A stretch of 64,000 nt of DNA from positions 9,326 through 73,325 of the forward strand of contig JBHHYI010000002.1 of assembly GCA_046757525.1 (NCBI GenBank), in the 5' to 3' direction. The notes under the pieces were generated by a model that ran no database searches, was not told where the DNA came from, and worked only from the letters and a program-made list of their open reading frames with translations. The stretch comes from a bacterium. Its GTDB lineage: Bacteria; Zhuqueibacterota; Zhuqueibacteria; Oceanimicrobiales; Oceanimicrobiaceae. Shown piece by piece: positions 1 through 33,947 of this stretch (positions within the stretch are counted from its first letter, which is position 1; each line of letters starts with the position of its first letter). Both the position numbers and the translations under genes were made by a program.

Positions 1-2118
1 CTCCTTCAGCGTGTCAGCAACCGCCACAATACCTGCGGCCTTACCATTCTCTGCCACGAACATAGGCGTCTTGCCTTGGTTAGACAACGCCTCAGCCTTT
101 TCCAACAAGGTACGCAATTGCACCGCTCGTTTTTGCATTAATTTCTCATTTCCTAACAGAACCACGGTGCCATTCACAGTGGCTTGGATACCATGACCTG
201 TAATCGCATTGAACTCGGTCGGGTCGCTCATCTTGACGCCCAGAGCCTTCGCCTTATTCACGATGGCTTCTCCCAAAGGATGCTCCGAATACTTTTCCGC
301 CGAAGCAGCCAGGCGCAAAACGGTATCTTCGTCGTAACCATTAAACGGCACAATATCCGTAACCTCTGGTTCTCCTTTGGTCAGGGTGCCGGTTTTGTCG
401 AATACAATGGTATTCAGACGATGTGCGGTTTCAAGACTTTCGCCGCCTTTAATCAGAATGCCATTTTCAGCGCCTTTGCCGGTACCCACCATGATGGCCG
501 TGGGCGTAGCCAACCCAAGGGCGCAAGGACAGGCGATAATCAGCACGGCAACAAAGTTTAGTAAAGCAAAGGTAAAGGCCGGCGTCGGCCCGAAAGCCCA
601 CCACACGACAAAGGTCGCCACGGCGATGCCAATGACAATCGGAACAAAGACGCCGCTTATTTTATCCGCCAGGCGCTGAATAGGCGCCTTGGAACCCTGC
701 GCCTCTTCCACCAACTTGATAATCTGCGCCAGGGCGGTATCCTTGCCGATCTTGATGGCCTTGAATTTGAACGATCCGGTTTTGTTGATGGTGGCGCCGA
801 TGACCTCGTCGCCAATGCTCTTCTCCACCGGCAGACTTTCTCCAGTCAGCATGGACTCATCCAGGGCCGACCGTCCTTCGACGATTTCTCCATCTACTGG
901 AACCTTTTCACCGGGTCGCACCACCACAATCTCTCCAATTTCAACGTTTTCGACCGGAATATCGACCTCTTCCCCGTTTCTAACCACCCTGGCCGTCTTG
1001 GCCTGCAAGCCCATGAGCTTTTTGATGGCCTCGCTGGTATGCCCCTTGGCAATGGCTTCCAAATAGCGTCCGAGGAGAATCAAGGTGACGATGATCGCAG
1101 CGGTGTCAAAATAGACTTTGGGCTGACGACCTGCCGAGGTGAAAAATGCAGGAAATAGGATGGCCGCCAAACTGTAAAAATAGGCTGCGGAGGTACCCAC
1201 GGCAATCAACGTGTTCATATCCGCGGTCTTGTGCTTTAACGCCGCCCAGAATCCGCGATAAAACTGCCAGCCGACCCAGAACTGCACGGGTGTGGCTAAG
1301 ATGAGCAGCACCCAATAATTAGAAAGCAAATCCGGCAGCCACGCGAACCATTCCTGGAAGCTACCCAGAAAAATGGGCAAGCTGAGCAGTGCTCCGACAA
1401 TCAGTTTGGTGCGCAAGGTGCGGATTTCCTTTTCCCGCGCCATCTTCTCGCGGTCCACGGCTTCTTCTCCCTCTTCGATTTCAAGCACCTCATAGCCCGT
1501 GTCGTGCACCACCTTTTTCAAGTCCGAGACACGCACCTGTGCCGAAAGAAAAGTCACGGTCGCCTTCTCGCTGGCAAAGTTGACGCTGGCGGAAACGACT
1601 CCTGGCGTTTTCAGAAGCGCGTTTTCAATCTTCTGTACGCAACTGGCGCAGCTCATCCCTGAAATTGGCAGAACGACTTTTTCGACCGCCGGCGTATAGC
1701 CGACGTCATTCACCGTGTCCACAACGTCTCGCGGCGAGACCCTGGCAGGGTCAAACACAACCGTGGCCTTTTCCGAACCGAAATTGACCGCGGCGTCGAG
1801 GACGCCGTCCACACCACGCAGCCCTTTCTCGATTTTTTCCACACAACTGGCGCAGCTCATGCCCTGAATAGGCACAATCAGTTTTGCCTTGCCCTTCACA
1901 CCCACCTCGTCCGTGGCGGTCCTGGCCGCTTCCGCAAGGTGCACCTCTCCCTCACCCACTGCACACACCGCGGTTGGATTCAGATATTTCTCAGGCTCTG
2001 CATCGAACTTTTTCTTGCACGCCTCTGCACAAAAATAAAACGTCGTACCATTGTGCTTGCTGGTCGCGGCCGCTTCCTTCTCATCCACAGTCATGCCGCA
2101 AACTGGATCTAATGACAT
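1..2118 (-). CDS. copA: Copper-translocating P1B-type ATPase (CopA). The N-terminus is present, and the C-terminus runs off the window at position 1.
   Basis: My reverse-strand translation starts at ATG 2118 with GGAGG 6 nt upstream. It reads [13 protein letters not shown] (YHS/TRASH-like CGM motif), then two HMA domains (GMSCASCV twice), the CPC transmembrane motif ([13 protein letters not shown]) and the DKTGTLT phosphorylation motif. The reading frame stays open to position 1. Confidence 0.9.
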
Positions 2119-2518
2119 TTGAGTACCTCCTTATCCATGATTCAAATGATTGCTCCTTGCTGGTTGGCCGTTCTTCTCGTCTATCTTGCCATCTCCGCAC
2201 TTGAAGCGTTAACCCGTCTACACCGACCACCTCCGCGAACTCGTTTTTGCGCAAGGCATCAAAAGAGACAGCCTTCCAAATCTCACCGTGCACCTGAACA
2301 CGTCCTTCTGGATTCAATGGCTTGAGCACCTTAGCTTTTGCACGCATGAGGCCCTCCTTGCCAGTTTGTACTGAGCGTCTCATCGCCCGCATGATTTCAA
2401 AATAAAACCAGGCAGACAGCAAGACTATCGCACCGTATACCGGGACTGCCGTCCAAACAGGCAAGAGCCAGAATACAGCCAATCCAAAAATGGGCATCAT
2501 TAAAATCAGATGACACAT
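2081..2518 (-). CDS. Short NfeD-family membrane protein carrying only the C-terminal OB-fold domain. It overlaps the copA start by 38 nt.
   Basis: 145 aa. The N-terminus is hydrophobic ([34 protein letters not shown]). The C-terminus reads [35 protein letters not shown], typical of the NfeD OB domain. An AAGGAGA RBS lies upstream. The full-length NfeD at 44949 ends in the similar [15 protein letters not shown]. Confidence 0.6.
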
Positions 2519-2814
2519 CGTGCTTGTTTGTATCTCCTTCGTTTGATCGTCTCTTTACACTTTTGTTAGACAAGAAACATGCCACATGCTTAGACAGTCT
2601 ACTAACCATTTTTAAATTAGGGAGTTAGAATGTTTGATTCGGCAGGTTTTTAGGTGAAGATTGAACAGTATTCTACATTCTGAATGGTGAGTATTCAACA
2701 GCTTTTGTAGTTGCAGCCGATCTATACTTATTACTCCTCCTGAATACGAGAAAAGGCTTTGAATCTACTGGACGATTTCTTATATTAATATGGGTATTAA
2801 CTAGGAGACTAATC

Positions 2815-2955
2815 ATGAAACGTATGAGCTTAAATGAGATTAGAAAGAAATATCCCGATGAGTGGGTACTTCTGGCAGGGCCCGAGACAGATGAATTTTT
2901 GAATATAAAAACCGCCGTCGTGATTGCACACAGCCCGCATCGTAGTGAAATATAG
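2815..2955 (+). CDS. Small hypothetical protein of 46 aa, possibly DUF5678-like.
   Basis: ATG at 2815 sits 6 nt after AGGAGA. The protein is MKRMSLNEIRKKYPDEWVLLAGPETDEFLNIKTAVVIAHSPHRSEI. It is too short to appear in the ORF track. It lies in an AT-rich islet immediately upstream of the aspartic protease gene. Confidence 0.4.
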   Translation: MKRMSLNEIRKKYPDEWVLLAGPETDEFLNIKTAVVIAHSPHRSEI

Positions 2956-3032
2956 CTGAAACAACGAAATCTGGAAGGACATTACGCTATTGAGTACACC
3001 GGTGAAATTGCTAAAAGCAAGGTCTTCGTTTT

Positions 3033-3456
3033 ATGAGCCTCCATATTTCTTTTGACCCTCACGAGAACTTAATCTATCTTCGAGCAAGGATTTTTGGGCC
3101 AACAGGTAGCCGCATTACGAAAATGGCACTTGACACAGGTGCTACGACCACGCTTGTGTCAGCCGATATTATCAATGCTGGGGTATTCACCAGCTATCGG
3201 TGAAACGGTTCGGCTCATTATGGGAGGAAGCATACAGTATGCATCACAAGTAATAGTGCAAATGCTGGAAGCAGCAGATGAGCGAGTAGAAAACCTGCGG
3301 ATAATCTGCCATGACCTTCCGGAAGAGAGTGGACTTGATGGTCTGTTGGGGTTGAATTTTCTGAGCCATTTCAATACCGAGATTAACTACAGCAATGGTA
3401 CGCTCATTCTTAAGCCAATTCAAAATGCTCAGCCTTCCGGCATACTTCAGGCATAG
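3033..3456 (+). pseudogene. Retropepsin-like (clan AA) aspartic protease with an apparent +1 frameshift near 3190-3205.
   Basis: Frame 3 (3033-3203) encodes MSLHISFDPHENLIYLRARIFGPTGSRITKMALDTGATTTLVSADIINAGVFTSYR and then a stop. The DTGA motif is the aspartic protease active site. Frame 1 (ORF 3094-3456) carries the rest: ...AIGETVRLIMGGSIQYASQVIVQ...ICHDLPEESGLDGLLGLNFLSHFNTEINYSNGTLILKPI. Together they give a ~140 aa single-domain retropepsin-like protease. Confidence 0.55.
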
Positions 3457-3502
3457 TCACAATTAATGCCTACTTGGTCACGTCGTGACATAAAAAAGGC
3501 AG

Positions 3503-3536
3503 GCCCATCCTGAACCTGCCTTCTTAATCTTACACC
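3503..3536 (-). terminator. Rho-independent terminator after the SHOCT gene.
   Basis: The minus strand reads AAGGCAGG-ttcaggatggg-CCTGCCTT followed by TTTTTTAT. Confidence 0.6.
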
Positions 3537-3543
3537 CGCGAGG

Positions 3544-3747
3544 CTAATGCGTCAGCATCTTCTTGCGCTCTTCAAACTCCTGTTTGTCAATCTCGCCGCG
3601 GGCGAACCGCTCGCGCAAGATATCCAACGCCGACTTACCTTTTTTCATGATCTTTCCTTTGGAATCGGTGTAATCGATAAATACCTTGACACCCCATACA
3701 ATTAAGACAATGAGTGCTATCCAAAGAATCCAGATGCCAAACATCAT
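3544..3747 (-). CDS. SHOCT-domain membrane protein.
   Basis: 67 aa with an N-terminal TM helix. The C-terminus reads LDILRERFARGEIDKQEFEERKKML, matching the SHOCT short C-terminal domain consensus. Confidence 0.7.
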   Translation of the reverse strand: MMFGIWILWIALIVLIVWGVKVFIDYTDSKGKIMKKGKSALDILRERFARGEIDKQEFEERKKMLTH

Positions 3748-3804
3748 GACTATACACCTCCTTCAATTTGTTATAGCCTCGCAGGCCAGGCAAAGAGCCT
3801 TTTT

Positions 3805-4446
3805 CTACTCTGTTTTAGGGTGATGCTTCTCATGTTCACTGGTTCCAGAGTCACTTTTTGAACTGCTACCCATCATGGGACAATCACCATTTTGACCCTG
3901 AGACATGGATCCCATTTGCATCATCCCACCACGCATGCCAGACATTTTCATCGATTTTGTCTTCTTCAACTGTTCTGGCGTGAGCACGGCACGAGCATCC
4001 AGTTGGGCCTTGAATTCGGTCAATCGAATGTCTGACCTCAGGTCCTCCACTCTTTTGGCCTTTGTTTCAAGGTCTGAGCGCTTGGCTTTCATACCTGTCA
4101 TGAGTTCATTGAGCTCGAGATTCGCGATTTTCAGGTCTGCCTCTTTTCGAATGACCGCTTTCTGGGTTGTGGTCTTGATTTTTTGGAGCTGCTCAATCTG
4201 GGAGTCGTTTAGGCCCAGGGACTCTGCCTGATTTAAGAAAAATCCCTGCATGTGACCCGCGCCCATCATGGGACACATCGAATCACCCATCTGGCACATC
4301 ATCTTCTGCCCCATCATCTTGTGCATGCCCTGCCCCATCGGCATGCCTTGCATCCCCATTTTTTGTTGCGACATACCTTGCGCCCACATGGGGCTGGCCA
4401 ATGCAACAGCAATCATGGCCGTCAAGAAAAATTTGAGTGTTCTCAT
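3805..4446 (-). CDS. Periplasmic Spy/CpxP/ZraP-family protein with Met/His-rich metal-binding-like tracts.
   Basis: It has a signal peptide (MRTLKFFLTAMIAVALASPMWAQ). The N- and C-terminal tracts are Met-rich (MGMQGMPMGQGMHKMMGQKMMCQMGDSMCPMMGAGHMQG and MSGMRGGMMQMGSMSQGQNGDCPMMG), and the protein ends HEKHHPKTE. The central helical region carries LTxxQ-type motifs (LNDSQIEQLQ, LTPEQLKK) diagnostic of the Spy/CpxP family. Confidence 0.75.
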   Translation of the reverse strand: MRTLKFFLTAMIAVALASPMWAQGMSQQKMGMQGMPMGQGMHKMMGQKMMCQMGDSMCPMMGAGHMQGFFLNQAESLGLNDSQIEQLQKIKTTTQKAVIRKEADLKIANLELNELMTGMKAKRSDLETKAKRVEDLRSDIRLTEFKAQLDARAVLTPEQLKKTKSMKMSGMRGGMMQMGSMSQGQNGDCPMMGSSSKSDSGTSEHEKHHPKTE

Positions 4447-4520
4447 GGTACTATCTCCTTTCTTGATTAGTTAGATGAGAATCTCTTCTGAATTACAAAA
4501 TTAAACTCGTTCCTTCCTTA

Positions 4521-4536
4521 CGCAACACTCATGCCA
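4521..4536 (-). promoter_or_regulatory. Sigma-54 (RpoN) promoter driving the ZraP-like/SHOCT operon.
   Basis: The minus strand reads cTGGCATgagtgTTGCGt. The -24 GG and -12 GC elements have exact consensus spacing (TGGCAC-N5-TTGCW). The site is ~75 nt upstream of the ATG at 4446. Confidence 0.5.
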
Positions 4537-5298
4537 GAAAGAAAGGTGCACCTGTTAGAAAAGTATCCGCTCTTTAACTCTGGTAAACTCAGACACTTTT
4601 ATCCCTTTCAACATTAAAAGATGGTTTGCCGGGATGCTCCTTTTGCAGAATATTTGACAACGCCACTGATGAATACTCTACAGCCCGCACGGGACGAAGC
4701 ATCCCAGATTGGCACCTACGACTGGCCAGAAGTTTCAAACGCACCGACGTCAGGGCGCGGCAAGAGTTTGACAATGGGAGTTGTCGAAGCTCTTATGAAA
4801 AGTGCCACGAGTCAGCTTGAGCGAAACCTTGAGGTATGGGGACTACGTTTTCTCAGGCATCCGTCAGCAGCCGGACTGATCCGTCAAGCGCCGGACTAAT
4901 GAGCCAGGACTCAATTGGTTGACACTGTCCTTGCTTCAGGGGAGAGTCGGCTTTGGCGTGGGCCAGCCACGCTTGCGCCTGTGGACCGTGCAAAGGCTAA
5001 AACAAGGCTTCAGCACTCCAGGGAGGCGGCTCGGCAGGCAAAACGAAGATGGGAAAAAGAAGGCGAGAGAACCCCGTCGTTGGCATAGCCTCCCGAAAGA
5101 CATCTTCATACCAGGCACGGAGTACGCCGTCACGGGGTCTTGAAGTCTAAGATTCAGCGACTGCACGCTGAGATGTCCCGATGAAAGAGGGGTGTAGGGT
5201 TGCGGCACGAAGAAGCAGAACTCAGGCGGCATCTCTAAAGGTCATTTCGACGACTGGCAGCGGAGGAGAAATCTTGTTTGGTAAGCGACGGATTCAGC

Positions 5299-5733
5299 TC
5301 AGAGATTCTGTGGCCCAAACACGGCCTCAAATTGCTGCGGTGTTTTGACCATCCTTCTTTTTTCGAAGTCGAAGAAGACCACGCCTGTCTTGGCTCGAGC
5401 AACTTCTCTGCCGCTGGCTTTGCTGGAAATCTTGAAAAAAAAGTCACAACCGTTGCGGTTGATTCCGTCGACTGCAACCTCGAATGTGAGGACTTCGCTG
5501 AGGAAGACTTCGCATTTGTACACAACCACGGCATCGACCACAACCAGACCCACGCCCTCAATGTTCAATTCAGAAAAACCGAATTGCTGTAAAAACCGCA
5601 TTCTGGCTTCGTGAATGAGAGACAAGAACTTGTCGTTGCCGAGGTGGCCACCGTAATTGAGATCGGTGACCCGAACTCTCATTTCCGTGGAAAACTGAAA
5701 TTTGTCGGGTAGATTTATTTTGACGCGCGCCAT
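5299..5733 (-). CDS. Acyl-CoA thioesterase of the 4HBT/YbgC hotdog family.
   Basis: 144 aa. Residues ...VTDLNYGGHLGNDKFLSLIHEARMRFL... are typical of the YbgC/4HBT family. Confidence 0.75.
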   Translation of the reverse strand: MARVKINLPDKFQFSTEMRVRVTDLNYGGHLGNDKFLSLIHEARMRFLQQFGFSELNIEGVGLVVVDAVVVYKCEVFLSEVLTFEVAVDGINRNGCDFFFKISSKASGREVARAKTGVVFFDFEKRRMVKTPQQFEAVFGPQNL

Positions 5734-8274: not shown

Positions 8275-8868
8275 ATGGAATCGCGTGAAGAAAAACAAGT
8301 ATTGAAGTACATCAAAAAAGCCCTTGCAGGTGAGTCGAAAGCCTTTGAGTGGATCGTCCGTGCGTATCAAAAACGCATCTATTACGCCGTTCTGCAAATG
8401 GTCATGAATCATGAAGACGCCAACGATATCATCCAGGATACGTTTGTCAAAGCGTTTACCAAGCTGGACACCTACAATAAGGAATACCCCTTTTACCCAT
8501 GGTTGTATCGCATTGCGATTAACACGACGCTCAATCATCAGAAACAGAAGAAGCGCAATCAGTTGTTGTCTCTGGACGATTCCAATGGCAATCACCAGGG
8601 GGAGCTGGCCATGGAGGCCGAGCAGGTTAACGAAATGGAGAAGAATGAGCTGATCGTAGAGGTCAGGCGAGCGTTGCGGCAAATTCCTGCTGAACAACGC
8701 ATTGTCTTCATGTTGCGGGTCAAAGATGAATTGAGTTACCAGGAAATCAGTGAGTATCTGGAGATTTCCATGGGTACGGTCATGTCGAGATTATCTCGTG
8801 CCCGCGAAAAGCTGCGGGCGCTGCTAAGCAACTATTTAGAGAAGAAGGATGTTGAGGTTAACCGATGA
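8275..8868 (+). CDS. RNA polymerase sigma-70 family ECF sigma factor.
   Basis: 197 aa. Region 2 reads DIIQDTFVKAF...YPWLYRIAINT. Region 4 has an HTH (ELSYQEISEYLEISMGTVMSRLSRAREKLR). Its stop overlaps the next start (ATGA at 8865-8868). Confidence 0.85.
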   Translation: MESREEKQVLKYIKKALAGESKAFEWIVRAYQKRIYYAVLQMVMNHEDANDIIQDTFVKAFTKLDTYNKEYPFYPWLYRIAINTTLNHQKQKKRNQLLSLDDSNGNHQGELAMEAEQVNEMEKNELIVEVRRALRQIPAEQRIVFMLRVKDELSYQEISEYLEISMGTVMSRLSRAREKLRALLSNYLEKKDVEVNR

Positions 8869-10091
8869 ATTGCATTGATTGTAAATCCAGGATGCAGCTT
8901 TATCTGGACCAGGCGCTTCCCCGTGAGGAGAGCAAGCAGATGCTCGAGCATTTGAAGGCTTGTCCGGATTGCAACAACGAGTATCAGACTTTGCAGAGAG
9001 TGGACGCCCTGGGCCGATTGGAGGTTTTTCCAGGGCCACCGTCGGAATATTGGGACACGTTGCCACAGCAGATCACCCGTCAACTTCCGCGCAGAGAACT
9101 GATCAAAGTCTCCAGGAAAACAATTCCGTTGCGGCCCAAGTTCCTTTTTTCAGGGCGATTGCGGGCGGGGCTTGCTGTGGCCCTTGGCATTGTCGCGTTA
9201 GTCCTCTTAATGCGAAGAAGCCATTGGCTCGATCAGGACGGCCCTGAGGTGCCTGGCAATCCAGGCGTGACAGTGAAATCGACTACCCAACAAGTCCCAC
9301 CAATTAACTCGTTGCGTAAACGGGAAAGCAGCGACAAAACGCGGCACACCACAACCAGAGTTGCTGAAAGACCTGACGGATTCCGGTCGCACAAAAACAT
9401 GGACGCTACGGCCAACCCGCCGGATTCTCACCCACAGCAACCAAAGTCCTCGCGTGGAATGTCGGAAGGTGTGGCGCAAAAGCAGCCTGAGCCGGTCCAG
9501 GACGTGTCACAAGAGTTGCAGGAGCCTGCGACGGTGAATGCCCTGGCAGGACTGAAGGAGGTGAGAAAAGCCAAACCTTCGCCTCTGACCACTATTGAGT
9601 CACCCAAAAAGCTTACCCAACTGTACCCAATTCCCAGGGATGAATTGGCGTTGTCCGTTTCCAAAATGGTTAAGGAAACGGCTTCCAATTCAAGGAGGCA
9701 CGTGCCCAACCAGTTTGCCCTGAATGTCGGTCGAGAGGTTCCGTCGGACCAAACCTCTCAGGACCACAAGCAGCTTGGTGAGACCGACTCGAGACAAGAC
9801 GATTTTGCTGAAACCCTGTGGTTGGTGCAAGAGAGCACAACCCTTGAGGAAAAACGGAACATCTGGCTGTCTTATATTGCCAGAGAACAGGCCCCCACCT
9901 ACCGTTCTCTGGGTGTTTATCATTTGGCCCGGGTCCTAACCCAACGAGTTGAGCAGTCGAAGAACAAAGAGAAGGCCCTCCAGGCTCTCAACTTTTTCCG
10001 GAAACACGAAAAGTCGTTGCGACCTTTAATGGGAGGCCGGCAGTACGAACTCGAGCTGAACGCATTCACCGCCGTACTTGACGGCCGTTGA
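8865..10091 (+). CDS. Membrane anti-sigma factor with an N-terminal zinc finger (ZAS-like).
   Basis: The N-terminal cytoplasmic part carries H-x3-C-x2-C (HLKACPDC) and DCKSRMQLYLD. A single TM helix follows (LAVALGIVALVLLM). It is translationally coupled to the ECF sigma gene. Confidence 0.7.
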   Translation: MNCIDCKSRMQLYLDQALPREESKQMLEHLKACPDCNNEYQTLQRVDALGRLEVFPGPPSEYWDTLPQQITRQLPRRELIKVSRKTIPLRPKFLFSGRLRAGLAVALGIVALVLLMRRSHWLDQDGPEVPGNPGVTVKSTTQQVPPINSLRKRESSDKTRHTTTRVAERPDGFRSHKNMDATANPPDSHPQQPKSSRGMSEGVAQKQPEPVQDVSQELQEPATVNALAGLKEVRKAKPSPLTTIESPKKLTQLYPIPRDELALSVSKMVKETASNSRRHVPNQFALNVGREVPSDQTSQDHKQLGETDSRQDDFAETLWLVQESTTLEEKRNIWLSYIAREQAPTYRSLGVYHLARVLTQRVEQSKNKEKALQALNFFRKHEKSLRPLMGGRQYELELNAFTAVLDGR

Positions 10092-10515
10092 CCAGACCCG
10101 AACTATACTATTATGTCTCATTTCTTGCATCGGTCAGGCCAGTCATCCGGCGGCTGCCGGCCGGCCCTTGACGGGCCCGTTAGAGGTCCGGCCTTTGACG
10201 GACGCCCGACTGACAAAAGTGCAAAAAGAAATGGAACGCGGATTGCACGGATTTAACTGATCCGAACGGATTAGCCCGATTTAATCTGTTTGAGGCAGTC
10301 AGTCTGAACGGTATAGCTCATCAACCGTTTAATTTGTACAAGAAACAAATCCGCGTAAATCCGTTCGATCCGTAAAATCCGTGTTCCATTCGTTTGCGGC
10401 TGCGCCGCGCTAGGGCTACGAAACTGTTTTTAGAAAACCCGTGCTCCTGGTGACGCAAACGACTCATTAATGAGACCAGACCTCCTTGCTCCTCCCCCTC
10501 CTTCTTTTAGCCGTG

Positions 10516-10636: not shown

Positions 10637-11497
10637 ATGAACCCTGTGGACCTGAACGCTTCCGATCTCCAGGGGCTGGTCGCAACGGCTTTGGCTGAAG
10701 ATCTCGGCAGCCGAGGCGATGTGACTTCCGATTGGTTGCTGCCCGATGAAACAAAGGGCACCGCGGTCATCGTTGCCAAACAGGAAGGCATCATTGCCGG
10801 TCTTCCGGTTGCCCAGAAGGTGTTTGAGACTGTGGATCAGGAGCTCGTTTTTACCCCATTCGTCCGGGACGGAGATCGCCTCCAGAGGAACACAAAGGTC
10901 GCTCAAATTGCCGGCTCTGCAAGAGGCATTTTGACTGCGGAACGGACTGCACTGAACTTTTTGCAAAGACTGTCCGGCATTGCAACTCTAACCTCGCAAT
11001 ATGTGGCACAAACACAGGGCACCAAAGCCAGAACCCTGGACACCAGGAAAACAACCCCTGGGTTGCGCCACCTGGAAAAATACGCGGTACGCATGGGCGG
11101 CGGGCTAAATCACAGAATGGGATTGCACGACATGGTCCTGATTAAGGAGAATCACATTGAGGCGGTGGGAAGCTTAGCCAGGGCCGTGACATTGGTGCGG
11201 GAACGGTCGAGTCGCGACAACTTGCAATTGAGCGTTGAGGTGGAAACGCGCACTTTACAAGAAGTAAGCGAAGCCCTTGAATCGCAGGTGGACAGAATCA
11301 TGTTGGACAACATGCCATTGAGCGAAATACAAGAGGCCGTGCGGCTGGTCGGCGGAAAGGTGGAGGTGGAGGTTTCCGGTGGCGTTACCCTGGCAAATGT
11401 GCGCGCCATCGCGGAAACCGGCGTGGATTACATTTCCGTCGGTGCGCTCACTCATTCCGCGCCAGCTTTGGATTTGTCGCTGTTAATGGGGCGTTGA
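10637..11497 (+). CDS. nadC: Nicotinate-nucleotide pyrophosphorylase [carboxylating] (quinolinate phosphoribosyltransferase).
   Basis: 286 aa. Supporting motifs are ERTALNFLQRLSGIAT, DTRKTTPGLR and MLDNM, together with TIM-barrel signature residues. Confidence 0.85.
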   Translation: MNPVDLNASDLQGLVATALAEDLGSRGDVTSDWLLPDETKGTAVIVAKQEGIIAGLPVAQKVFETVDQELVFTPFVRDGDRLQRNTKVAQIAGSARGILTAERTALNFLQRLSGIATLTSQYVAQTQGTKARTLDTRKTTPGLRHLEKYAVRMGGGLNHRMGLHDMVLIKENHIEAVGSLARAVTLVRERSSRDNLQLSVEVETRTLQEVSEALESQVDRIMLDNMPLSEIQEAVRLVGGKVEVEVSGGVTLANVRAIAETGVDYISVGALTHSAPALDLSLLMGR

Positions 11498-17127: not shown

Positions 17128-17679
17128 TTTCTTCGCTCTTGGCTGTTTAGGCCCGTTTTCAACTCGGGCTGAGCAAGCGAACGCAAAGCACCCCGAATCA
17201 AAGGGTCTGCCATAAGCTTGGCCTCAGCTCGAATCAAGATTGTGCAACGGCGTCCACGATCAACAAACAGTTCTATGTACTTTTGGGCCAGGCTTCCCGG
17301 AAATCTCCTGACTCCGAGGAGGTTTCAGAGCGACTCAGGCCAGGGCTATCTGGTGGGTTGAAAAACCTGCATCCGATCCCGCGGAATGAATAGGAAGACG
17401 AGGCCCCGTCGGCGCAAAAGCCAATGGGAAAAATGTAGAATATTGTCCACATGTTTAGAGTCGGTGTGGAATAGTAGTCAAACGCTCGAATCCTCGCGTG
17501 GAGAAAAATATTGGTTAGAACAGGCTAATTCACTTATTAAGCTGACAGTTGCAGCAACAAAAAATCGTTTGAAAAAAAATGGTATAGTTTTTGGCATATT
17601 GCGCAAACAATAATCCGCAACGAAGTCTGTTTGAACGATGAGCATAAAAGAGAGTTATTGATCATTTGGAGGTAAGTGT

Positions 17680-18954
17680 ATGAATAGACCTATTTTAATA
17701 TGGGTGACGATATTTTTAGTATTTACTGTGGCACACGACTGTGTCTTCGCTCAAAACAATGGCAAAGGTCTTTCTCTACAAAAACTGATCGAGGAAGCGT
17801 TGGAGAGAAACCCTGAGATTAAGTCAGCGCAACGTCTTTGGCAAGCCACCGAACAGAAGCCCGCACAGGTTTCTACGCTGCCGGACCCGGTATTTAGCTA
17901 TTCCCGCTTTGGCAAAAGTGTGGAAACCCGCGTGGGGCCGCAGGAGAATGTGTTTGCGCTGTCGCAGAAAATTCCTTTTCCGGGCAAATTAGGCTTGAAA
18001 GGAAAAATGGCCGGGCAAGACGCCTTGTCGCAACAGCAAGCGTATGAAGCCACCAAAAGGGATGTCATTTTCAAAGTTAAGAACGCTTACTACGATTTGT
18101 ATTGGGTTGACCAGTCCATAGGCATTTTGGAACAATATCTGAATTTGTTGCAAGATTTCACCCGTGTGGCGGAACGAAAGTACGCCACCGGGCAGGGCAT
18201 TCAGGCAAGCGTTCTTAAATCGCAGGTCGAGATTTCAAGTACACTGGAAAGAAAGCTCCGTTTTGAGAAAGTGCGGCACGGGATTGTGGCGCACCTGAAC
18301 GCGCTTGTGGACAGACCGCAGAATGCTGAATTGGGAAGGGCGACTCAAATCGACTCAGCCCGCCTGCATTTAGACCAGGACGCTTTGGTCCAACAAGCCT
18401 TGTCAGACCGGCAGGAGCTCATGTCGATTCAAGCCATGATCGGGAAGAGCCAATTCATGCGAAGTCTGGCAAAACGAAACTACCTGCCTGATTTCACTCT
18501 AAAGGCTAATTACATCGATGTTGCAAAAGGAGTAAGCGTCGCTGCCGATGCGGGTAAGAATGCCTGGTCTGTGATGCTCGGCCTGAATTTGCCCATCTGG
18601 CTGGGCAAGCGCAACGCTGCAGTTCGGGAAGCGGATGACATGCTTGCCTCAAACAAACTGAAGTACGAAGATTTTCTTAACCAGGTGGAAGCTGAAATCA
18701 GGGATTTTTACTACCAGCTCGACGTCACCGGTGAGACCCTGGATTTGTATGAGCAAGGACTCATCGCTCAGGCCGAGAGCAGCCTGGCGTCCTCTCTGGC
18801 CAGCTACCGGACCGGTAAGCTGGATTTCTTGAGCCTTTTGGACGCTGAGCGCATGCTGTTGCACTTGAGGTTGGGATATGTCAAAGAGCTGTCGAATTAC
18901 CAGAAGGAGTTAGCGGCGTTGGAGCGCACAGTTGGAGGCCAGTTGCCCCAATAG
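17680..18954 (+). CDS. cusC: TolC-family outer membrane efflux protein of the heavy-metal RND operon.
   Basis: 424 aa with a signal peptide. It starts with the OEP repeat LSLQKLIEEALERNPEIKSAQ. It is first in a three-gene operon with an adaptor and an HME-RND pump. It could equally be CzcC-type. Confidence 0.7.
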   Translation: MNRPILIWVTIFLVFTVAHDCVFAQNNGKGLSLQKLIEEALERNPEIKSAQRLWQATEQKPAQVSTLPDPVFSYSRFGKSVETRVGPQENVFALSQKIPFPGKLGLKGKMAGQDALSQQQAYEATKRDVIFKVKNAYYDLYWVDQSIGILEQYLNLLQDFTRVAERKYATGQGIQASVLKSQVEISSTLERKLRFEKVRHGIVAHLNALVDRPQNAELGRATQIDSARLHLDQDALVQQALSDRQELMSIQAMIGKSQFMRSLAKRNYLPDFTLKANYIDVAKGVSVAADAGKNAWSVMLGLNLPIWLGKRNAAVREADDMLASNKLKYEDFLNQVEAEIRDFYYQLDVTGETLDLYEQGLIAQAESSLASSLASYRTGKLDFLSLLDAERMLLHLRLGYVKELSNYQKELAALERTVGGQLPQ

Positions 18955-19009
18955 CCACACGGAAGAGCCTCTTTAACCAAAGAAACGCTTTTAGCAAGGA
19001 GAGTAAAAC

Positions 19010-20416
19010 ATGCTAGATCTTATGATTCTGAAGAAACAACGTCGGTCTGTTGTCCTGGCTCTGACGGTCTTGCTTCTAACTGGGGCTTGTGGCAAGCGTG
19101 AGCATGAGCAGACGGCTGCTTCCGGTAAGGAGCCAGCAAAAGCCGAGGCATCGGCGCCGCAGATGAGCGCAGACCATGAGCAAGCTGGCACGATGAAAAT
19201 GGACATGAAAATGAAAAAAAGCACACCATCACAGGACTCGGCGGACAAGAAAGGGAAAAAGATTCTGTATTGGCGTGCGCCCATGGACCCCACCTACATT
19301 TCGGACCAACCGGGCAAGTCGCCCATGGGGATGGATCTGATTCCGGTTTACGAAGGCGAAGAAGTCGCTTCCGGCTCCACAATTTCAATCGATCCGGTAA
19401 CCGTGCAAAACATGGGCGTCCGTACTGCACGGGTGAGGCGTCAGCCATTCAGCCGTGTTATCAGAACTGTTGGACATATTGACTATGACGAGGAAACATT
19501 GTACAACATCAACCTCAAGTTTCATGGCTGGATAGAGAAGCTCTATGTGGACCGCACCGGAGAGCCGGTAAGGAAAGGGCAGGCGCTGCTCAAGGTTTAC
19601 TCTCCGGAGCTGGTTTCGACGCAGGAAGAATATCTCCTGGCTTACAAGAACCGGCAGCAATTGGCCAATAGCTCGTTTGCCCAGGTGAGCAAGGGGGCTG
19701 AAAGTCTGCTGGCGTCGACGCGTCAAAGACTGCAGTATTGGGACATTTCCGACGAGCAGATTGCAAAGCTGGAAAAGACCGGGCAGGTCAACAAAACATT
19801 GACCATCTACTCGCCGGCGGACGGAGTCGTGGTGCACAAGAATGCCGTCGAGGGAATGTACGCCATGGAAGGTGTCAACCTGTTTCGCATCGCTGACCTC
19901 ACAAAGATATGGGTCTATGCTCACATCTTCGAGTACGAACTGCCCTGGATTAAGGTTGGGCAACAGGTAACCATGGAATTGCCCTATGTTCCCGGGCGAA
20001 AATTTACAGGAAGGGTGGATTACCTGTATCCTTATCTGAACGCCAAAACCAGAGACGTAAAGATTCGCATCATATTTAACAATCCAACGCTGGAGCTGAA
20101 GCCACAAATGTATGCCAACATAACGATTGAATCCAGCGCTGGCGACAACGTGTTGGTGGTCCCGGGTGAAGCAGTCATTCGCTCTGGTGTGCGCAACCTG
20201 GTTTTTCTCGATCTGGGAAATGGAAAATTTCGCCCGCAGGAAGTCGTGTTGGGCCCTGAAGGCGACGACGGCCTGGTGGAAATCGTTTCGGGCTTAGAGG
20301 AAGGCCAGGGGATTGTCACCAGCGCACAATTCATGTTGGACTCTGAAAGTCGTTTACGCGAAGCGATTCAAAAGATGCTGGAAGTCAAAAAAGCTGCTCA
20401 ACAAAAAATGGAATAA
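19010..20416 (+). CDS. cusB: Efflux RND periplasmic adaptor subunit (CusB/CzcB-like).
   Basis: 468 aa. The N-terminus is Met-rich (TMKMDMKMKK). A degenerate heavy-metal-binding domain reads YWRAPMDPTYISDQPGKSPMGMDLIPV; the canonical form is YxCPMHP...GKCPKCGMDL. HlyD-like barrel-sandwich and beta-barrel domains follow. Confidence 0.8.
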   Translation: MLDLMILKKQRRSVVLALTVLLLTGACGKREHEQTAASGKEPAKAEASAPQMSADHEQAGTMKMDMKMKKSTPSQDSADKKGKKILYWRAPMDPTYISDQPGKSPMGMDLIPVYEGEEVASGSTISIDPVTVQNMGVRTARVRRQPFSRVIRTVGHIDYDEETLYNINLKFHGWIEKLYVDRTGEPVRKGQALLKVYSPELVSTQEEYLLAYKNRQQLANSSFAQVSKGAESLLASTRQRLQYWDISDEQIAKLEKTGQVNKTLTIYSPADGVVVHKNAVEGMYAMEGVNLFRIADLTKIWVYAHIFEYELPWIKVGQQVTMELPYVPGRKFTGRVDYLYPYLNAKTRDVKIRIIFNNPTLELKPQMYANITIESSAGDNVLVVPGEAVIRSGVRNLVFLDLGNGKFRPQEVVLGPEGDDGLVEIVSGLEEGQGIVTSAQFMLDSESRLREAIQKMLEVKKAAQQKME

Positions 20417-20475
20417 GGGAAATAATATGCTCTCGGGAAACGCTCCTTGTTCGTCTTTTACGAATAAAACGACCC

Positions 20476-20620
20476 ACTTTGGCTGTAGGGTGCTATTTGG
20501 CACGTGGGGCTACAAGGGACGCTGGAGCGTCCTGTGTTCGTCCCCACGCAGAGCATGGGAACGAGGGCTACGGTCACTTGAGAAGCAGCGACCTACTCGG
20601 GATGACTCGCACAGTGCTTC
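20476..20620 (-). repeat. Intergenic repeat element, copy B, in inverted orientation inside the cus operon.
   Basis: The reverse complement of 20569-20616 is CACTGTGCGAGTCATCCCGAGTAGGTCGCTGCTTCTCAAGTGACCGTA, which matches the conserved 5' module of copies A and C. The downstream part holds different GC-rich hairpins (GGACGCTccAGCGTCC). Confidence 0.75.
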
Positions 20621-20778
20621 TGAGACACCGGGCTTTACTAAACTTCGGAAGGTTAGTAAAGCTGAAAATGAGTTCCTTCCATTCAGAACTGCGATAGCCG
20701 TGAAATTCAAAAAAGCGTTTAGATTGAAAAATTCATGAACAACGAAGCGCGAATTTACTGAAGAATAGAGGACTGAAA

Positions 20779-23700: not shown

Positions 23701-23904
23701 ATGACCGTGACCGCCATTATCGCAGGACTTCTGCCCATCATGTGGGGGCATGGCACCGGTTCGGATGTCATGAAGCGGATCGCAGCGCCCATGGTTGGCG
23801 GAATGATGTCCTCGACCGTCTTAACCCTGCTCGTGATTCCGGCCATTTACTTCATCTGGAAAAGCTGGGAGAATCGCAAACGGTGGGTGGCGGAACAGAA
23901 GTAA
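20779..23904 (+). CDS. cusA: Heavy-metal efflux RND permease of the CusA/CzcA family.
   Basis: 1041 aa. The N-terminus MLEKVIEWSVNNRFMVILVTLFVILIGVIAM...AIPDLSDVQVIVFTEFPGQAPQVVEDQVTYPL is characteristic of HME-RND pumps, which have 12 TM helices. Confidence 0.9.
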   Translation: MLEKVIEWSVNNRFMVILVTLFVILIGVIAMLRTPVDAIPDLSDVQVIVFTEFPGQAPQVVEDQVTYPLTTSMLAVPRAKVVRGYSFFGFSMVYIIFEDNTDLYWARSRVLEYLNYVSKRLPPGVTPTLGPDATGVGWVYEYALKSDRHDLAQLRSIQDWLLRYELTTVPGVAEVASIGGYVKQYQVEVDPNKLLIYDIPLQKIKMAIKNANNDVGGRLVEMAETEFMVRGLGYIKSVSDLEKVTLGVDNRGVPITLKQVAHVQLGPELRRGLSELNGEGEVVGGIIVMRYGENALKTIDGVKAKLEQLKKSLPKGVEIVPVYDRSGLIERAIENLRGKLVEESIVVALVCIIFLLHFRSAFVAIFTLPVGILIAFMIMHRQGINANIMSLGGIAIAIGAMVDAAIVMIENAHKHIEHDTGKNHWQIIIDASKEVGPALFYSLLIITISFVPVFTLQAQEGRLFKPLAFTKTYAMAASALLAITIVPVLMGYFIRGKIMPEDKNPVNRFLIWIYLPVINLVLRFKKTALLVATAILLLSLWPLSKLGSEFMPPLYEGDLLYMPTTDPGISITKAKQLLQQTDKIIKNQFPNEVHHVFGKVGRAETATDPAPLSMMETTIMLKPEDEWSPGMTPKKLVDSLNAAIHFPGLTNAWTMPIKTRIDMLATGIKTPVGIKLMGDDLSVLADLAQQIATVLTNVPGTLSVFPEKAVGGNYLDFKIKRDETMRYGLNVGDVQDVIKSAIGGMNVTQTVEGLERYPVNVRYSRELRDNIGALQRVLISTPTGAQIPITQVADIQIKKGPPVIKSENSRRSAWIYVDLSNIDVGTYVARAKKVVEERINLPTGYTMLWSGQYEYMQRAKERMKLVVPVTLVIIFVLLFLNFKNVVESVVVMFSLPFALIGGIWLMYLLNYDFSVAVGVGFIALAGVTAEIGVIMLTYLDRAYEQRISSGKMQHKSDLIQSILEGTSMRLRPIFMTVTAIIAGLLPIMWGHGTGSDVMKRIAAPMVGGMMSSTVLTLLVIPAIYFIWKSWENRKRWVAEQK

Positions 23905-29068: not shown

Positions 29069-29213
29069 CAAAATCAGTTGGTTGGAAGAAATTCCAATTG
29101 ATAAATAGGGCATACGATTGCTTGGGTTCCAACCTGAAGACTCTCGTTTGCAGAATCTTTTTCAAGCTTGAAGAGTACAATAGAATGAAATTGTCTAATA
29201 TTCTACATTTTGA

Positions 29214-30344
29214 TTGAATCTCGTGCTAAGCCCGGAAGAAAAAAAGCCCATCATTATTCTCGTTGGATTGATTGTTATTATCACTGTCTTGCATTACAGT
29301 ACGACCACAACTAAAGGTTCCTTGCACGAAGTCTACAAGACTCTGTATTATATCCCGATTATCTTGGCTGCCTTTCATTTTGGCATCAAGGGGGGTTTGA
29401 TAGCCTCATTAAGCATTAGTGCTGTGTATTTGCCCCACGTGATCTTTCAGTGGCGAGGAGAATTGGAGGAATTTACCCACCGTTTATTAGAAATTGGACT
29501 GTACAATGTGGCAGCGTACATTGTGGGCCGGCTGTCTCAAGGGGAGCGCGCAGAACGCAACAAATACGAGCAAGCCGCCGAACAACTGCGCGAATCGTAT
29601 GAACAGCTCCAGCACCAGTCCGAGACTCTGGCTGAAGTAGAGGAGCAGTTACGACATTCAGACCGACTGTCGGTTATGGGGGAACTGGCTGCCAGTCTGG
29701 CGCATGAGGTACGGAATCCCCTGGGCTCCATTAAAGGGGCGGTAGAGATTCTGCAGGACGATTATCCCAAGGAGAATCCAAACTACCAGTTTCTACAAAT
29801 CCTCGTCAAAGAAGTCAATCGTCTGAATCAGGTCATAGAGAATTTCCTGAGCCTGGCGCGTTCAAGGGTCTCGCAGATTCAGGAGTTACCCCTGCAGGAG
29901 ACTGTGAATTCCGTTGTCAACATTGTGTCAGCAAAGGCACACAAAGAGAAAGTGGCCATCGATTGTCGTTTTCCGGACCACCCTGTGCTCATAAAAGCCG
30001 ATGAAAACAAATTTCGGCAAGTTTTGCTGAACCTTTTACTAAACGCCATGGCCGCTATCAACGGCGGCGGTCATATTACCATCGACTCTCAGGTCAATAA
30101 CCGGCAGGCAGGCAATCGAATATTAGAGCTGACCATTTCTGACACGGGCAGCGGCATTCCGGAAAGCGAGATGAAAAATATCTTCAAGCCATTTTTTACC
30201 ACGAAAGAACATGGCACAGGTTTAGGCTTACCCATTACCAAGCGCATCATAGAAGAGTGCAACTGGGAGCTTGGGATCGACAGCAAGGTCGGTGAGGGCA
30301 CACAAGTCAGGGTGCGTATCCCCCTAAACGAGGAAACATCATGA
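29214..30344 (+). CDS. Two-component sensor histidine kinase with a membrane-embedded N-terminal domain.
   Basis: It has ~4 N-terminal TM helices and no large periplasmic loop. Then come a coiled coil, a HisKA H-box (LAASLAHEVRNPL) and an HATPase_c domain (DTGSGIPE; GTGLGL). It starts at TTG per the ORF track. Confidence 0.8.
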   Translation: MNLVLSPEEKKPIIILVGLIVIITVLHYSTTTTKGSLHEVYKTLYYIPIILAAFHFGIKGGLIASLSISAVYLPHVIFQWRGELEEFTHRLLEIGLYNVAAYIVGRLSQGERAERNKYEQAAEQLRESYEQLQHQSETLAEVEEQLRHSDRLSVMGELAASLAHEVRNPLGSIKGAVEILQDDYPKENPNYQFLQILVKEVNRLNQVIENFLSLARSRVSQIQELPLQETVNSVVNIVSAKAHKEKVAIDCRFPDHPVLIKADENKFRQVLLNLLLNAMAAINGGGHITIDSQVNNRQAGNRILELTISDTGSGIPESEMKNIFKPFFTTKEHGTGLGLPITKRIIEECNWELGIDSKVGEGTQVRVRIPLNEETS

Positions 30345-31699
30345 AGCAGAATAGAATTTTACTCATTGATGACGATGAGAGCTTGCTGCAGGTGACCGCC
30401 CATCAGCTCAAGCAGGGAGGCTACCAGGTCACCACGGCCATGACTGGAGAGGAAGGTGTGGAGAAATTCAAGGGGGGCACCTTTGAGGTAGTCATCACCG
30501 ATTTGGCCCTCCCGAAGATGAACGGCATCCAGGTCCTGATGGAAGTGAGGCGGCTGAATAAAGAAGTCGCAGTCATCATCATCACAGCCTTCGGCACTAT
30601 TGAAAATGCGGTGGAAGCCTGTGCCCTGGGTGCGGATGACTACCTGACCAAACCCTTCAGCCGCGAGCAGCTTCGGTTCGTGCTGGAAAAAGCCCTGCGG
30701 CTCCGGCACCTGAAAGCGGAAAACCTGCAGCTCAAAAGTGCCCTGTTGGAAAAATACGACTTCACCAACATTGTGGCCAAAAGCGGCAAAATGCAAGAAG
30801 TGTTGAAGATGGTGGGCCGGGTCGCCGAGAGCGAAGCCACCGTGCTGATCCTGGGCGAAAGTGGCACCGGCAAGGAATTGGTGGCGAGAGCCATTCATTA
30901 CAACAGTCCGCGCAAAAGCAGCCCTTTCATCACGGTGAACTGTCCCTCCATTCCGGACAACCTCCTGGAAAGCGAGCTCTTCGGTCACGTAAAGGGCGCG
31001 TACACCGGAGCCACCAAAGACCGGCATGGCAAATTTGAACAGGCGGATGGCGGCACCATTTTCCTGGACGAGATTGGCGATCTGAAGCCCGAATTGCAAG
31101 CCAAGCTGCTGCGTGTGCTGCAAGAAAGAGAGGTTGAACGCGTGGGGGGAGATAAACCGATTAAAGTGGACATCCGGATTCTGGCCGCCACCAATCAGGA
31201 TTTGCAAGCACGCGTGCAAGCTGGTACATTTCGCGAAGACTTGTTTTACCGGCTGACTGTCGTGCCCATCAGGATTCCCCCAATCAGGGAACGCAAAGAA
31301 GAAATCCCCTTTCTGGTTGACCACTTCTTGCACAAGTTTGCCCGCGGCCGTCGCTTGCAGGTGAGCGAACAAGCCATGCAAGCGCTGCTGGATTATGACT
31401 GGCCGGGCAACGTGCGAGAAATAGAAAACGCCATGGAACGGGCTGCTATTCTGAGCACCACGGAGATGATTACACCTGACGTTCTACCGCCACAACTGCG
31501 ACCCACAGAGTTAAATGTCATGGACGGCAATGTCATCCGCATCCCCGATGCAGGCATGGCGTTAGAAGAAATCGAACGCCGCTGCATTCAAATAGCTCTG
31601 GATAAATCGGGCGGCAACCAGACCCGTGCTGCCAAATTCTTGCAAGTCCCCAGACATATTCTTCTGTATCGGATGCGGAAGTTGAAAGTTGGGCAGTAA
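30341..31699 (+). CDS. Sigma-54-dependent response regulator (NtrC/ZraR/AtoC family).
   Basis: It has a REC domain (LLIDDDESL...TDLALPKMNG), an AAA+ sigma-54 activator domain (GESGTGKE; ESELFGHVKGAYTGA) and a C-terminal Fis-type HTH. Its start overlaps the kinase stop. Confidence 0.9.
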   Translation: MKQNRILLIDDDESLLQVTAHQLKQGGYQVTTAMTGEEGVEKFKGGTFEVVITDLALPKMNGIQVLMEVRRLNKEVAVIIITAFGTIENAVEACALGADDYLTKPFSREQLRFVLEKALRLRHLKAENLQLKSALLEKYDFTNIVAKSGKMQEVLKMVGRVAESEATVLILGESGTGKELVARAIHYNSPRKSSPFITVNCPSIPDNLLESELFGHVKGAYTGATKDRHGKFEQADGGTIFLDEIGDLKPELQAKLLRVLQEREVERVGGDKPIKVDIRILAATNQDLQARVQAGTFREDLFYRLTVVPIRIPPIRERKEEIPFLVDHFLHKFARGRRLQVSEQAMQALLDYDWPGNVREIENAMERAAILSTTEMITPDVLPPQLRPTELNVMDGNVIRIPDAGMALEEIERRCIQIALDKSGGNQTRAAKFLQVPRHILLYRMRKLKVGQ

Positions 31700-31754
31700 C
31701 TCTAACAATTCAATGAATGACGGGGCACCAACCACAAAAATAGCGACGAGCGCT

Positions 31755-33576: not shown

Positions 33577-33947
33577 AATTCACCTCCTTGCAAATAAGCG
33601 GTCCGTTGCAGAATCCCCATACAAAGCAAGTGCCGGAACGGGAAAACGGCTGTTTCGAAATGGAATTTTGATTCCGCCAGGAAAGGACTCACTCTGCTTT
33701 GCAAGTTAGCTGGAACCGCAGCACCAGAACGTCCTGTAACTGTTTAAAAATCAATATCATTAAAACAATATCTTATGCCGCTGCGGGTTCAAAACAGATT
33801 GACTTTCACCACAGACAGGACCTGCATGAAGGCTGCAAACAAAGAAAAGCTGGCAAACGCAGTCCGGCTTTCAAAAGCGCGGGGAAAATAATTCCAATTG
33901 AGGACTCAACGGTAGGCAAAAAAGTGTGCTCTGCGCCCCCTGATGGT

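Follow-up and report, generated by a model that had tools for sequence, protein, structure and literature searches.

In E. coli and Salmonella, the ZraP-ZraS-ZraR system of zinc and envelope stress uses a sigma-54-dependent two-component system of the NtrC class to control a periplasmic protein of the Spy/CpxP family. Feedback of such proteins on the sensor has precedents in CpxP acting on CpxA and ZraP acting on ZraSR. Export of copper and silver in E. coli (CusRS-CusCFBA and CueR-CopA) is controlled by an OmpR-type two-component system and a MerR-type sensor, both at sigma-70 promoters. In Cupriavidus the membrane-anchored CnrX signals to an anti-sigma/extracytoplasmic function (ECF) sigma factor system. 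A sigma-54 copper two-component system has been described for Myxococcus xanthus. In the passages of its description that were searched, CorSR controls copA and a multicopper oxidase, and CorS carries a periplasmic sensor and a HAMP domain (PMC3707914). The present analysis concerns a sigma-54-type promoter, and the operon of a Spy-like protein and a small transmembrane SHOCT (TM-SHOCT) protein behind it, in a 64,000-nucleotide stretch of DNA (the window) from a bacterium of the Zhuqueibacterota (contig JBHHYI010000002.1, assembly GCA_046757525.1). An original prediction, made from the letters of this DNA alone, had placed the operon in an envelope/metal-stress regulon of the ZraPSR kind. The data suggest that the promoter, the boxes upstream of it and an NtrC-class regulator encoded in the same window are likely to be parts of a sigma-54 copper/silver-export regulon.

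The promoter element TGGCATGAGTGTTGCG (Table 1) has the sequence TGGCAT-N5-TTGCG and the minus-strand position originally predicted. Its GG-N10-GC spacing is correct, 10 of the 12 specified positions agree with TGGCAC-N5-TTGCW, and its distance to the ATG at 4446 is 74 nt; AAGGAG precedes this ATG. By itself the match is not significant: TGGCAY-N5-TTGC is present once in the whole window against 0.43 expected, and at least once in 37 of 100 shuffles. Its significance derives from position and conservation, not from the number of matches. The DNA around 11 distinct orthologues of the Spy-like protein (55-71% protein identity) was compared, and TGG[CT]A[CT]-N5-TTGC (with CGG in one) was found upstream of the Spy-like start in all of these loci, at 60-87 nt from the start codon, while the spacer bases are unrelated and the flanks have diverged. 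In one locus (L013; loci are referred to by L numbers) the called start of the Spy-like gene was evidently too far downstream and the likely start was used. Conservation of the site upstream of the orthologous genes, proposed as a check in the original prediction, was thus found in full, and the element is very probably a real sigma-54 promoter of the Spy-like gene, as had been claimed. Among distant relatives of the Spy-like protein (28-39% identity; Eisenbacteria, Nitrospiria and Deltaproteobacteria; L017-L024, high-GC phyla) no convincing -24/-12 element was found, so that the promoter is to be seen as a trait of the close family only. An Rfam search of positions 2400-5400 returned no RNA family.

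Alignment of the upstream regions revealed one conserved block, approximately 110-145 nt upstream of the -24 element, consisting of two 16-bp pseudo-palindromes of the type TGTnnAnTATTCnnCA. The two boxes are 23 bp apart, centre to centre, and box 2 is 107 nt away from the -24 element. The box consensus is TGTAGAnTATTCnnCA. A position weight matrix (PWM) was built from the boxes of the relatives only, leaving out the window sequences, and 200 dinucleotide shuffles served as background. Over the whole window, 7 sites reach at least 16 bits with this matrix where 0.24 are expected, and 4 reach at least 18 bits where 0.06 are expected. Six of the seven sites fall in four control regions, those of the Spy-like gene, of NfeD-CopA, of a cus-like operon and of a histidine kinase gene. 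The seventh (52343-52358) falls within a Proton_antipo_M gene, has no promoter in its vicinity and is regarded as a chance match. The AT-rich conserved block that separates enhancer and promoter showed, by eye, no clear consensus match for integration host factor.

The coupling of boxes and promoters extends beyond the Spy-like operon. A scan of JGI metagenomes with the box pair alone gave 75 loci, most of which were set aside as 23-bp tandem repeats or for want of a recognisable regulon gene. Sixteen of the 75 encode homologues of a resistance-nodulation-division (RND) pump, adaptor or outer-membrane factor, of NfeD-CopA or of the kinase/regulator pair discussed below, and in these 16 the boxes lie upstream of the regulon genes. 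The promoters there have the form TGGCAY-N5-TTG, with C, T or A as the next base. In 29 of 38 box clusters (24 loci) TGGYAY-N5-TTG is present 63-131 nt away, pointing away from the boxes, where 0.026 would be expected per cluster. The base that follows TTG at -12 is C in all 11 Spy-like promoters, T in most copA promoters, A in most RND pump promoters and G in the cus promoter of the window. The TTGG of this last promoter fits a family rule, TGGYAY-N5-TTGN, and the differences between operon classes could grade promoter strength or leakiness. That the -24/-12 match arose by chance, the operon being transcribed from an ordinary sigma-70-type promoter, would agree with the single match against 0.43 expected in the window. 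It is nevertheless extremely improbable, given the 11 orthologous loci that keep the element at a fixed distance and the coupling to boxes just described; furthermore, no sigma-70-like site was reported at 4447-4700 on the minus strand.

The original prediction had pointed to another sequence as a possible enhancer, an 8-nt inverted repeat at 4631-4638 and 4698-4705. This repeat is present, and the conserved box block sits between its arms. The 852-nt spacer contains two 8-nt inverted repeats, of which GGGATGCT/AGCATCCC is one, against a chance estimate by the author of approximately 1.6. The repeat has no counterpart in 7 orthologous loci. Other copies of the GGGATGCT type in the window are found only inside the spoVR and DUF444 coding sequences and none is upstream of a -24/-12 element; at the other promoters of the window the motif, suggested as something to look for there, is absent. 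The repeat is thus at chance level and not conserved, and the conserved boxes are different sequences.

The window also encodes, as predicted, a histidine kinase and a sigma-54 response regulator, and their domains were confirmed (Table 1). The regulator matches Sigma54_activat with E=1e-74 and has GAYTGA as its loop. The N-terminal ~110 residues of the kinase form four hydrophobic membrane segments with conserved histidines and contain no periplasmic domain; by eye, only two short loops of ~15 residues each are exposed to the periplasm. In four lineages (L006/7/8, L026, L028 and L029) the pair is located directly upstream of the orthologous Spy-like gene. The kinases of these relatives are 376-382 amino acids (aa) long where complete (L026 and L029 are cut by a contig end) and the sigma-54 regulators 451 aa. 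Between the window and L006 the regulators are 81% identical, the kinases 69% and the Spy-like proteins 58%, and the regulator shows 81-83% identity to its orthologues in the related lineages. This high identity, together with the adjacency in relatives, indicates that the pair of the window is the orthologue of the system normally found beside the Spy-like operon. In this window 25 kb have come to lie between the pair and that operon.

In four lineages a single box precedes the kinase start by ~6-30 nt (window 29192-29207, L006 2031-2046, L028 272-287 and L107 8745-8760). None of these four boxes has a -24/-12 element nearby, which makes it probable that they act in autoregulation as operators, and not as enhancers. 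The adjacency of the pair to its target in four lineages and the box at the kinase gene are in agreement with the earlier proposal that the distant NtrC-class two-component system is the activator, and on these comparisons it is the likely activator of the Spy-like promoter. Alternatively, promoter and enhancer may be real but bound by a different sigma-54 activator encoded outside the window, while the window pair controls something else. The 25 kb between regulator gene and promoter would fit such a situation, as would the apparent richness of the genome in sigma-54-like sites and the presence of a second NtrC-type pair beside the first in the L107 genome. This alternative is considered unlikely, as it leaves aside the orthologous pair adjoining the target in four lineages, the box at the kinase start in as many, and a box pair in L100 that occupies the divergent region between a two-component system of this type and an RND operon.

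The regulator stop codon is overlapped by an open reading frame (ORF) of 469 aa (31689-33098, plus strand), which is probably co-transcribed. A secreted metalloprotease is conceivable for the encoded protein, which has no Pfam match, a signal-peptide-like N-terminus and the motif HELYH (HExxH). In L006 the Spy-like gene, instead of this ORF, follows directly after the regulator.

Boxes and TGGYAY-N5-TTG elements are present ahead of two further operons, which speaks for the inclusion of copA and the cus genes in the same regulon, as originally suggested. The NfeD-CopA box pair also occurs in L003, L039 and L066; the promoter-type element TGGCATGTTTCTTGTC is identical in L003, and similar TTGT variants are present in L009, L028 and L039. 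The CopA fragment is 80.6% identical to the CopA of L003 and contains two GMSCASC motifs (N-terminal CxxC metal-binding sites), CPC and DKTGT. Only the edge-cut fragment represents the copA that had been announced for this window, while the cusCBA-type operon announced with it is there (17680-23904). A 666-aa ORF (23968-25968), possibly the gene then taken for copA, was identified as CcmF.

The best score of the relatives-only matrix in the window belongs to the box 230 nt upstream of the cusC-like gene. The candidate element TGGTATAGTTTTTGGC follows 130 nt after this box and 84 nt before the ATG, at a position where the relatives show TGGCAY-N5-TTG[A/T/C]. A metagenome search with the cusC-like protein, directed at promoter conservation, yielded no relatives. 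Over its full length the RND pump shares 56% identity with E. coli CusA, and it scores 1235 against a cut-off of 701 with TIGR00914 (CusA/CzcA family). It keeps M573, M623 and M672 of CusA, the relay methionines, D405 and E939. The methionine triad of CusA is known from structural work as the Cu(I)/Ag(I) site. Its retention in the pump suggests that the metal is probably Cu(I)/Ag(I) and not zinc, and the same is probably true of the regulon as a whole, judged by its cargo. The adaptor has its best match with the CusB model, at 197 below the equivalog cut-off of 390, and contains the HMBD domain. No CusF-like ORF was found in the window; the ~360-nt gap between the cusB-like and cusA-like genes (20417-20778) contains no convincing ORF. 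The cargo is thus that of the E. coli Cus and Cue systems, a CusA-type pump with methionine triad, a CusB-like adaptor and a CopA P1B-ATPase. In E. coli different regulators serve these, whereas here one sigma-54 activator appears to serve both cargoes and no CusF gene is present in the window.

The comparison with ZraPSR bears on the original zinc framing, which would make the genes orthologues of ZraP and ZraSR and the GGGATGCT inverted repeat the enhancer. The logic is shared, a sigma-54 two-component system and a Spy-family protein with metal-binding tails rich in Met, His and Gly, and autoregulation is likely here too. Furthermore, the regulator and E. coli ZraR share 46% identity, the catalytic core of the kinase (residues 142-372) aligns with ZraS at 35% identity, and ZraP is among the fold matches of the Spy-like protein. 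However, the regulator scores 429 bits with the ZraR equivalog model NF007689 (cut-off 760), and the AtoC and NtrC models score higher. The kinase has no similarity to the periplasmic sensor of ZraS. BLASTP of the Spy-like protein against E. coli ZraP gave no match at E up to 10, so that the likeness is at the fold level only. In the E. coli zraP-zraS intergenic region no match to the enhancer PWM exceeds 6 bits. ZraPSR is organised divergently, whereas in the relatives studied here the order is co-directional, two-component system and then target; the regulon here also comprises two transporters that carry Cu(I)/Ag(I) signatures, CopA and a CusCBA-type pump. With the inverted repeat at chance level as well, a ZraPSR-type zinc/envelope-stress system is very unlikely. 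Of the originally predicted envelope/metal-stress regulon, the promoter, the regulator and the metal-stress character stand; the enhancer does not, and probably neither do the metal and the ZraP orthology.

CorSR is the other sigma-54 system that has to be considered. The kinase studied here is membrane-embedded, and is set apart from CorS by the published description of the latter. The targets differ as well, as CorSR/curA involves a multicopper oxidase in the passages searched, and a Spy-like/SHOCT pair and CusCBA are found here. No enhancer motif for CorSR was given in those passages of PMC3707914. The system thus appears, on sequence comparison with ZraPSR and on published description with CorSR, to work like either while being an orthologue of neither.

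The Spy-like protein itself has an N-terminus that by eye resembles a cleavable signal peptide, followed by Met-rich stretches and a helical core. None of the Spy-like, SHOCT and NfeD proteins matched an NCBIfam model, and a sequence-profile search of the PDB with the Spy-like protein returned only a marginal match, 5ihf (E=0.12). In an AlphaFold model, based on a 17-sequence alignment, residues 66-175 form a helical hairpin, with core helices at 81-175 (pLDDT >90), and the Met-rich tails are disordered. Foldseek comparison of this model with the PDB placed CnrX on top (TM score 0.66-0.73 on the target, probability 1.0, E ~0.02), and the next matches were NccX, Spy, CpxP and ZraP (probability 0.9-1.0). 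Of the LTxxQ motifs, LTPEQ is invariant in the family and the first is the variant LNDSQ. A C-x-MM(G) motif precedes the core, its Cys and both Met invariant or nearly so, and most family members have a second CPMMG-like motif and a tail with the consensus EHEKHHP after the core. Such Cys, Met and His ligands would be typical of Cu(I) binding. On the modelled structure, the protein would have the LTxxQ fold, a hooked helical hairpin, and would represent a remote branch of the CnrX/Spy/CpxP/ZraP group. CnrX and NccX of Cupriavidus, the best structural matches of the core, belong to Metal_resist, the Pfam family that the Spy-like protein matches below cut-off; they differ from the protein here in its cleavable-looking signal peptide, its long Met-rich tails and its sigma-54 context. 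Close clusters of the Spy-like protein number ~17 in a collection of 5.8 billion proteins.

The second gene of the operon has a SHOCT domain (PF09851) at 35.2 bits, above the cut-off of 27, and ends before a hairpin with U-run that folds at -25.8 kcal/mol (z=-3.1). A simple terminator scan had missed this hairpin, which RNA folding confirmed, and the SHOCT gene and terminator of the original prediction are thus both upheld. A SHOCT-type gene of 66-67 aa follows the Spy-like gene in ~7 of the 11 loci (L003, L006, L009, L013, L027, L028 and L034) and is absent in L011 and L029. The SHOCT domain is without established function (PMC3581485). In a haloarchaeon, silver reportedly induces a SHOCT membrane protein (PMC10694973).

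The combined evidence of sequence elements, conservation, synteny and transporter signatures allows a mechanism to be proposed. From it we infer binding by this particular regulator, Cu/Ag as the signal and a role for the Spy-like protein. The promoter would transcribe the two-gene operon of Spy-like and TM-SHOCT proteins up to the hairpin. The regulator would bind the two boxes at 4682..4644 and contact sigma-54 via DNA looping. The same module of regulator, boxes and promoter would drive NfeD-CopA and, very probably, the cusCBA-like pump. The box at the kinase start would probably feed back on the system itself, and the kinase, whose only sensor is membrane-embedded and has four segments, would be the partner of the regulator. 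A best guess for the Spy-like protein is a periplasmic chaperone that buffers Cu(I)/Ag(I), with possible feedback to the kinase.

It may also be that the main task of the Spy-like protein is to modulate signalling by feedback on the kinase, possibly via TM-SHOCT, and less to buffer metal or act as a chaperone; this is compatible with the proposed regulon. CpxP, ZraP and the sensor CnrX belong to its fold family, relatives keep its gene in tight linkage with the two-component system, the kinase lacks a periplasmic domain, and the TM-SHOCT partner is kept in most, though not all, orthologous loci. On the other hand, just two loops of the kinase would be available to such a partner in the periplasm, and box-bearing RND or CopA loci often occur without a Spy-like gene, so that the regulon works without the protein. 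A primarily modulating role is accordingly rather doubtful, though less so than the alternatives above.

Several points weigh against the proposed copper/silver-export regulon. The Spy-like protein matches Pfam Metal_resist (PF13801) with E=3e-5 and 24.6 bits, under the cut-off of 29.2, and the Foldseek E-values of its model are weak (at least 0.02). The regulator gene is 25 kb from the promoter, and another activator of equal specificity may exist elsewhere. No RpoN-family match was obtained among the window ORFs screened; rpoN would lie outside the window, its presence in the genome being implied only by the sigma-54 activator. The cus promoter, with a non-canonical -12 region (TTGG) and only one strong box, is the least certain of the promoters. 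Finally, the metal is deduced from the cargo genes and not from the sensor.

The module is not confined to the window. A 3.5-Mb contig of a Calditrichaeota metagenome-assembled genome shows the same layout within 9 kb, in the order two-component system, kinase-proximal box, tandem boxes, TGGCATCATCATTGAA, small ORF, outer-membrane factor, CusB-like adaptor and RND pump. The annotated sources of regulators with at least 60% identity are KSB1, Calditrichaeota, Zhuqueibacterota and Fodinibius, which all belong to the Fibrobacteres-Chlorobi-Bacteroidetes (FCB) group. A literature search with the box sequence gave nothing relevant, and no description of box or regulon was found in the searchable literature; the regulon is also absent from a paper on the sigma-54 regulome of D. 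vulgaris and from a cross-phylum survey of sigma-54 published in 2025. It is put forward, tentatively, that an undescribed sigma-54 copper/silver-export regulon is widespread in the FCB superphylum (Calditrichota, KSB1 and relatives), in which a kinase sensing through membrane histidines and an NtrC-class regulator acting on the 16-bp palindrome TGTAGAATATTCTACA co-activate CopA, a CusCBA-type pump and a Met-rich CnrX/Spy branch with TM-SHOCT. In such a regulon the Spy-like/SHOCT pair could relay the periplasmic metal status to the sensor-less kinase.

In the well-studied models, regulators of the MerR, CsoR or OmpR type control copper/silver export from sigma-70 promoters; in the system described here, one sigma-54 activator seems to coordinate an inner-membrane ATPase, a trans-envelope pump and a periplasmic Spy-family protein. 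The rule of enhancer box plus promoter can be used for prediction of the regulon in genomes of uncultured FCB-group bacteria and in metagenomes. The system also offers candidates for metal sensing by a kinase without periplasmic domain, for a role of TM-SHOCT proteins, and for Met-rich proteins of the Spy/CnrX fold in copper handling.

Table 1 Features of the window discussed in the text (PWM, matrix from boxes of relatives only; UAS, upstream activating sequence; HTH, helix-turn-helix)
Feature	Position	Strand	Basis
Sigma-54 -24/-12 promoter element TGGCATGAGTGTTGCG, Spy-like/SHOCT operon (very probable)	4536..4521	minus	spacing and conservation in orthologous loci
Enhancer (UAS) box 1 TGTAGAGTATTCATCA	4682..4667	minus	aligned conserved block; 18.2 bits, PWM
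Enhancer (UAS) box 2 TGTCAAATATTCTGCA	4659..4644	minus	aligned conserved block; 19.5 bits, PWM
Spy-like gene, 213-aa secreted Met/Cys/His-rich protein	3805..4446	minus	Metal_resist below cut-off, AlphaFold2 model, Foldseek
TM-SHOCT gene, 67 aa, N-terminal hydrophobic helix and SHOCT domain	3544..3747	minus	Pfam
Intrinsic terminator, hairpin and U-run	3525..3493	minus	RNA folding
Enhancer pair TGTTGAATACTCACCA and TGTAGAATACTGTTCA, 23 bp apart	2700..2662	minus	16.2 and 16.6 bits, PWM
Sigma-54-type element TGGCATGTTTCTTGTC (-12 region TTGT), NfeD-CopA	2584..2569	minus	pattern and relatives
NfeD-like protein	2518..2081	minus	Pfam NfeD
CopA-type Cu(I) P1B ATPase, first 706 residues, rest cut by window edge	2118..1	minus	motifs
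Enhancer box TGTAGAATATTGTCCA, cus-like operon	17434..17449	plus	21.2 bits, PWM
Weaker box, cus-like operon	17465..17480	plus	13.1 bits
Candidate sigma-54 element TGGTATAGTTTTTGGC (-12 region TTGG), cus-like operon	17580..17595	plus	position and relatives
cusC-like outer-membrane factor	17680-18954	plus	Pfam/NCBIfam
cusB-like adaptor with HMBD	19010-20416	plus	Pfam/NCBIfam
cusA-like RND pump	20779-23904	plus	Pfam/NCBIfam
Single enhancer-type box TGTCTAATATTCTACA	29192..29207	plus	19.5 bits, PWM; 6-15 nt before kinase start
Histidine kinase	29214..30344	plus	HisKA and HATPase_c
NtrC-class sigma-54 activator	30341..31699	plus	Response_reg, Sigma54_activat, AAA lid, HTH_8 (Fis-type HTH)

Some further observations were made around these features. 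A conserved small membrane protein of ~95-125 aa is encoded by the first gene of box-controlled RND operons, downstream of the sigma-54 promoter and ahead of the outer-membrane factor gene (L036, L047, L053, L056, L062, L086 and L089). Its motifs are TCL[FY]HR and YL[VL]P[FY]G[FL][FL]WW, and a tblastn search of the window for a homologue was negative. Between the SHOCT terminator and the NfeD enhancer, small opposite-strand ORFs without Pfam match are present (2815-3456, plus strand), one of which contains a retropepsin-like D-T-G-A motif, apparently split over two frames (3033-3203 and 3094-3456). Only ~300 nt separate SHOCT and NfeD in L003, and L004, L025 and L028 have HicA or other toxin-antitoxin-like inserts at equivalent spots. 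The ~600 nt upstream of the Spy-like enhancer (4700-5298), up to a thioesterase gene (5299-5733, minus strand), contain short ORFs without Pfam match but neither a recognisable gene nor an Rfam family.

Other sigma-54-like sites occur in the window. TGGCATAGTGTTTGTA (40976-40991, minus strand) precedes by 47 nt the start of a prkA - DUF444 (yeaH) - spoVR operon (38811-40928, minus strand; 37691-38794; 36178-37668); it has no enhancer box of the type described here nearby and would thus need a different activator. CGGCACTTGCTTTGTA (33620-33635, minus strand) is a possible sigma-54 promoter ~43 nt before a 150-aa ORF without Pfam match (33124-33576, minus strand), just beyond the gene that follows the regulator. 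TGGAACGCGGATTGCA (10232-10247, plus strand) agrees with the sigma-54 consensus TGGCACG-N4-TTGCW at 11 of 12 specified positions and is flanked by an ECF sigma/anti-sigma pair (8275-10091) on one side and nadC (10637-11497) on the other.

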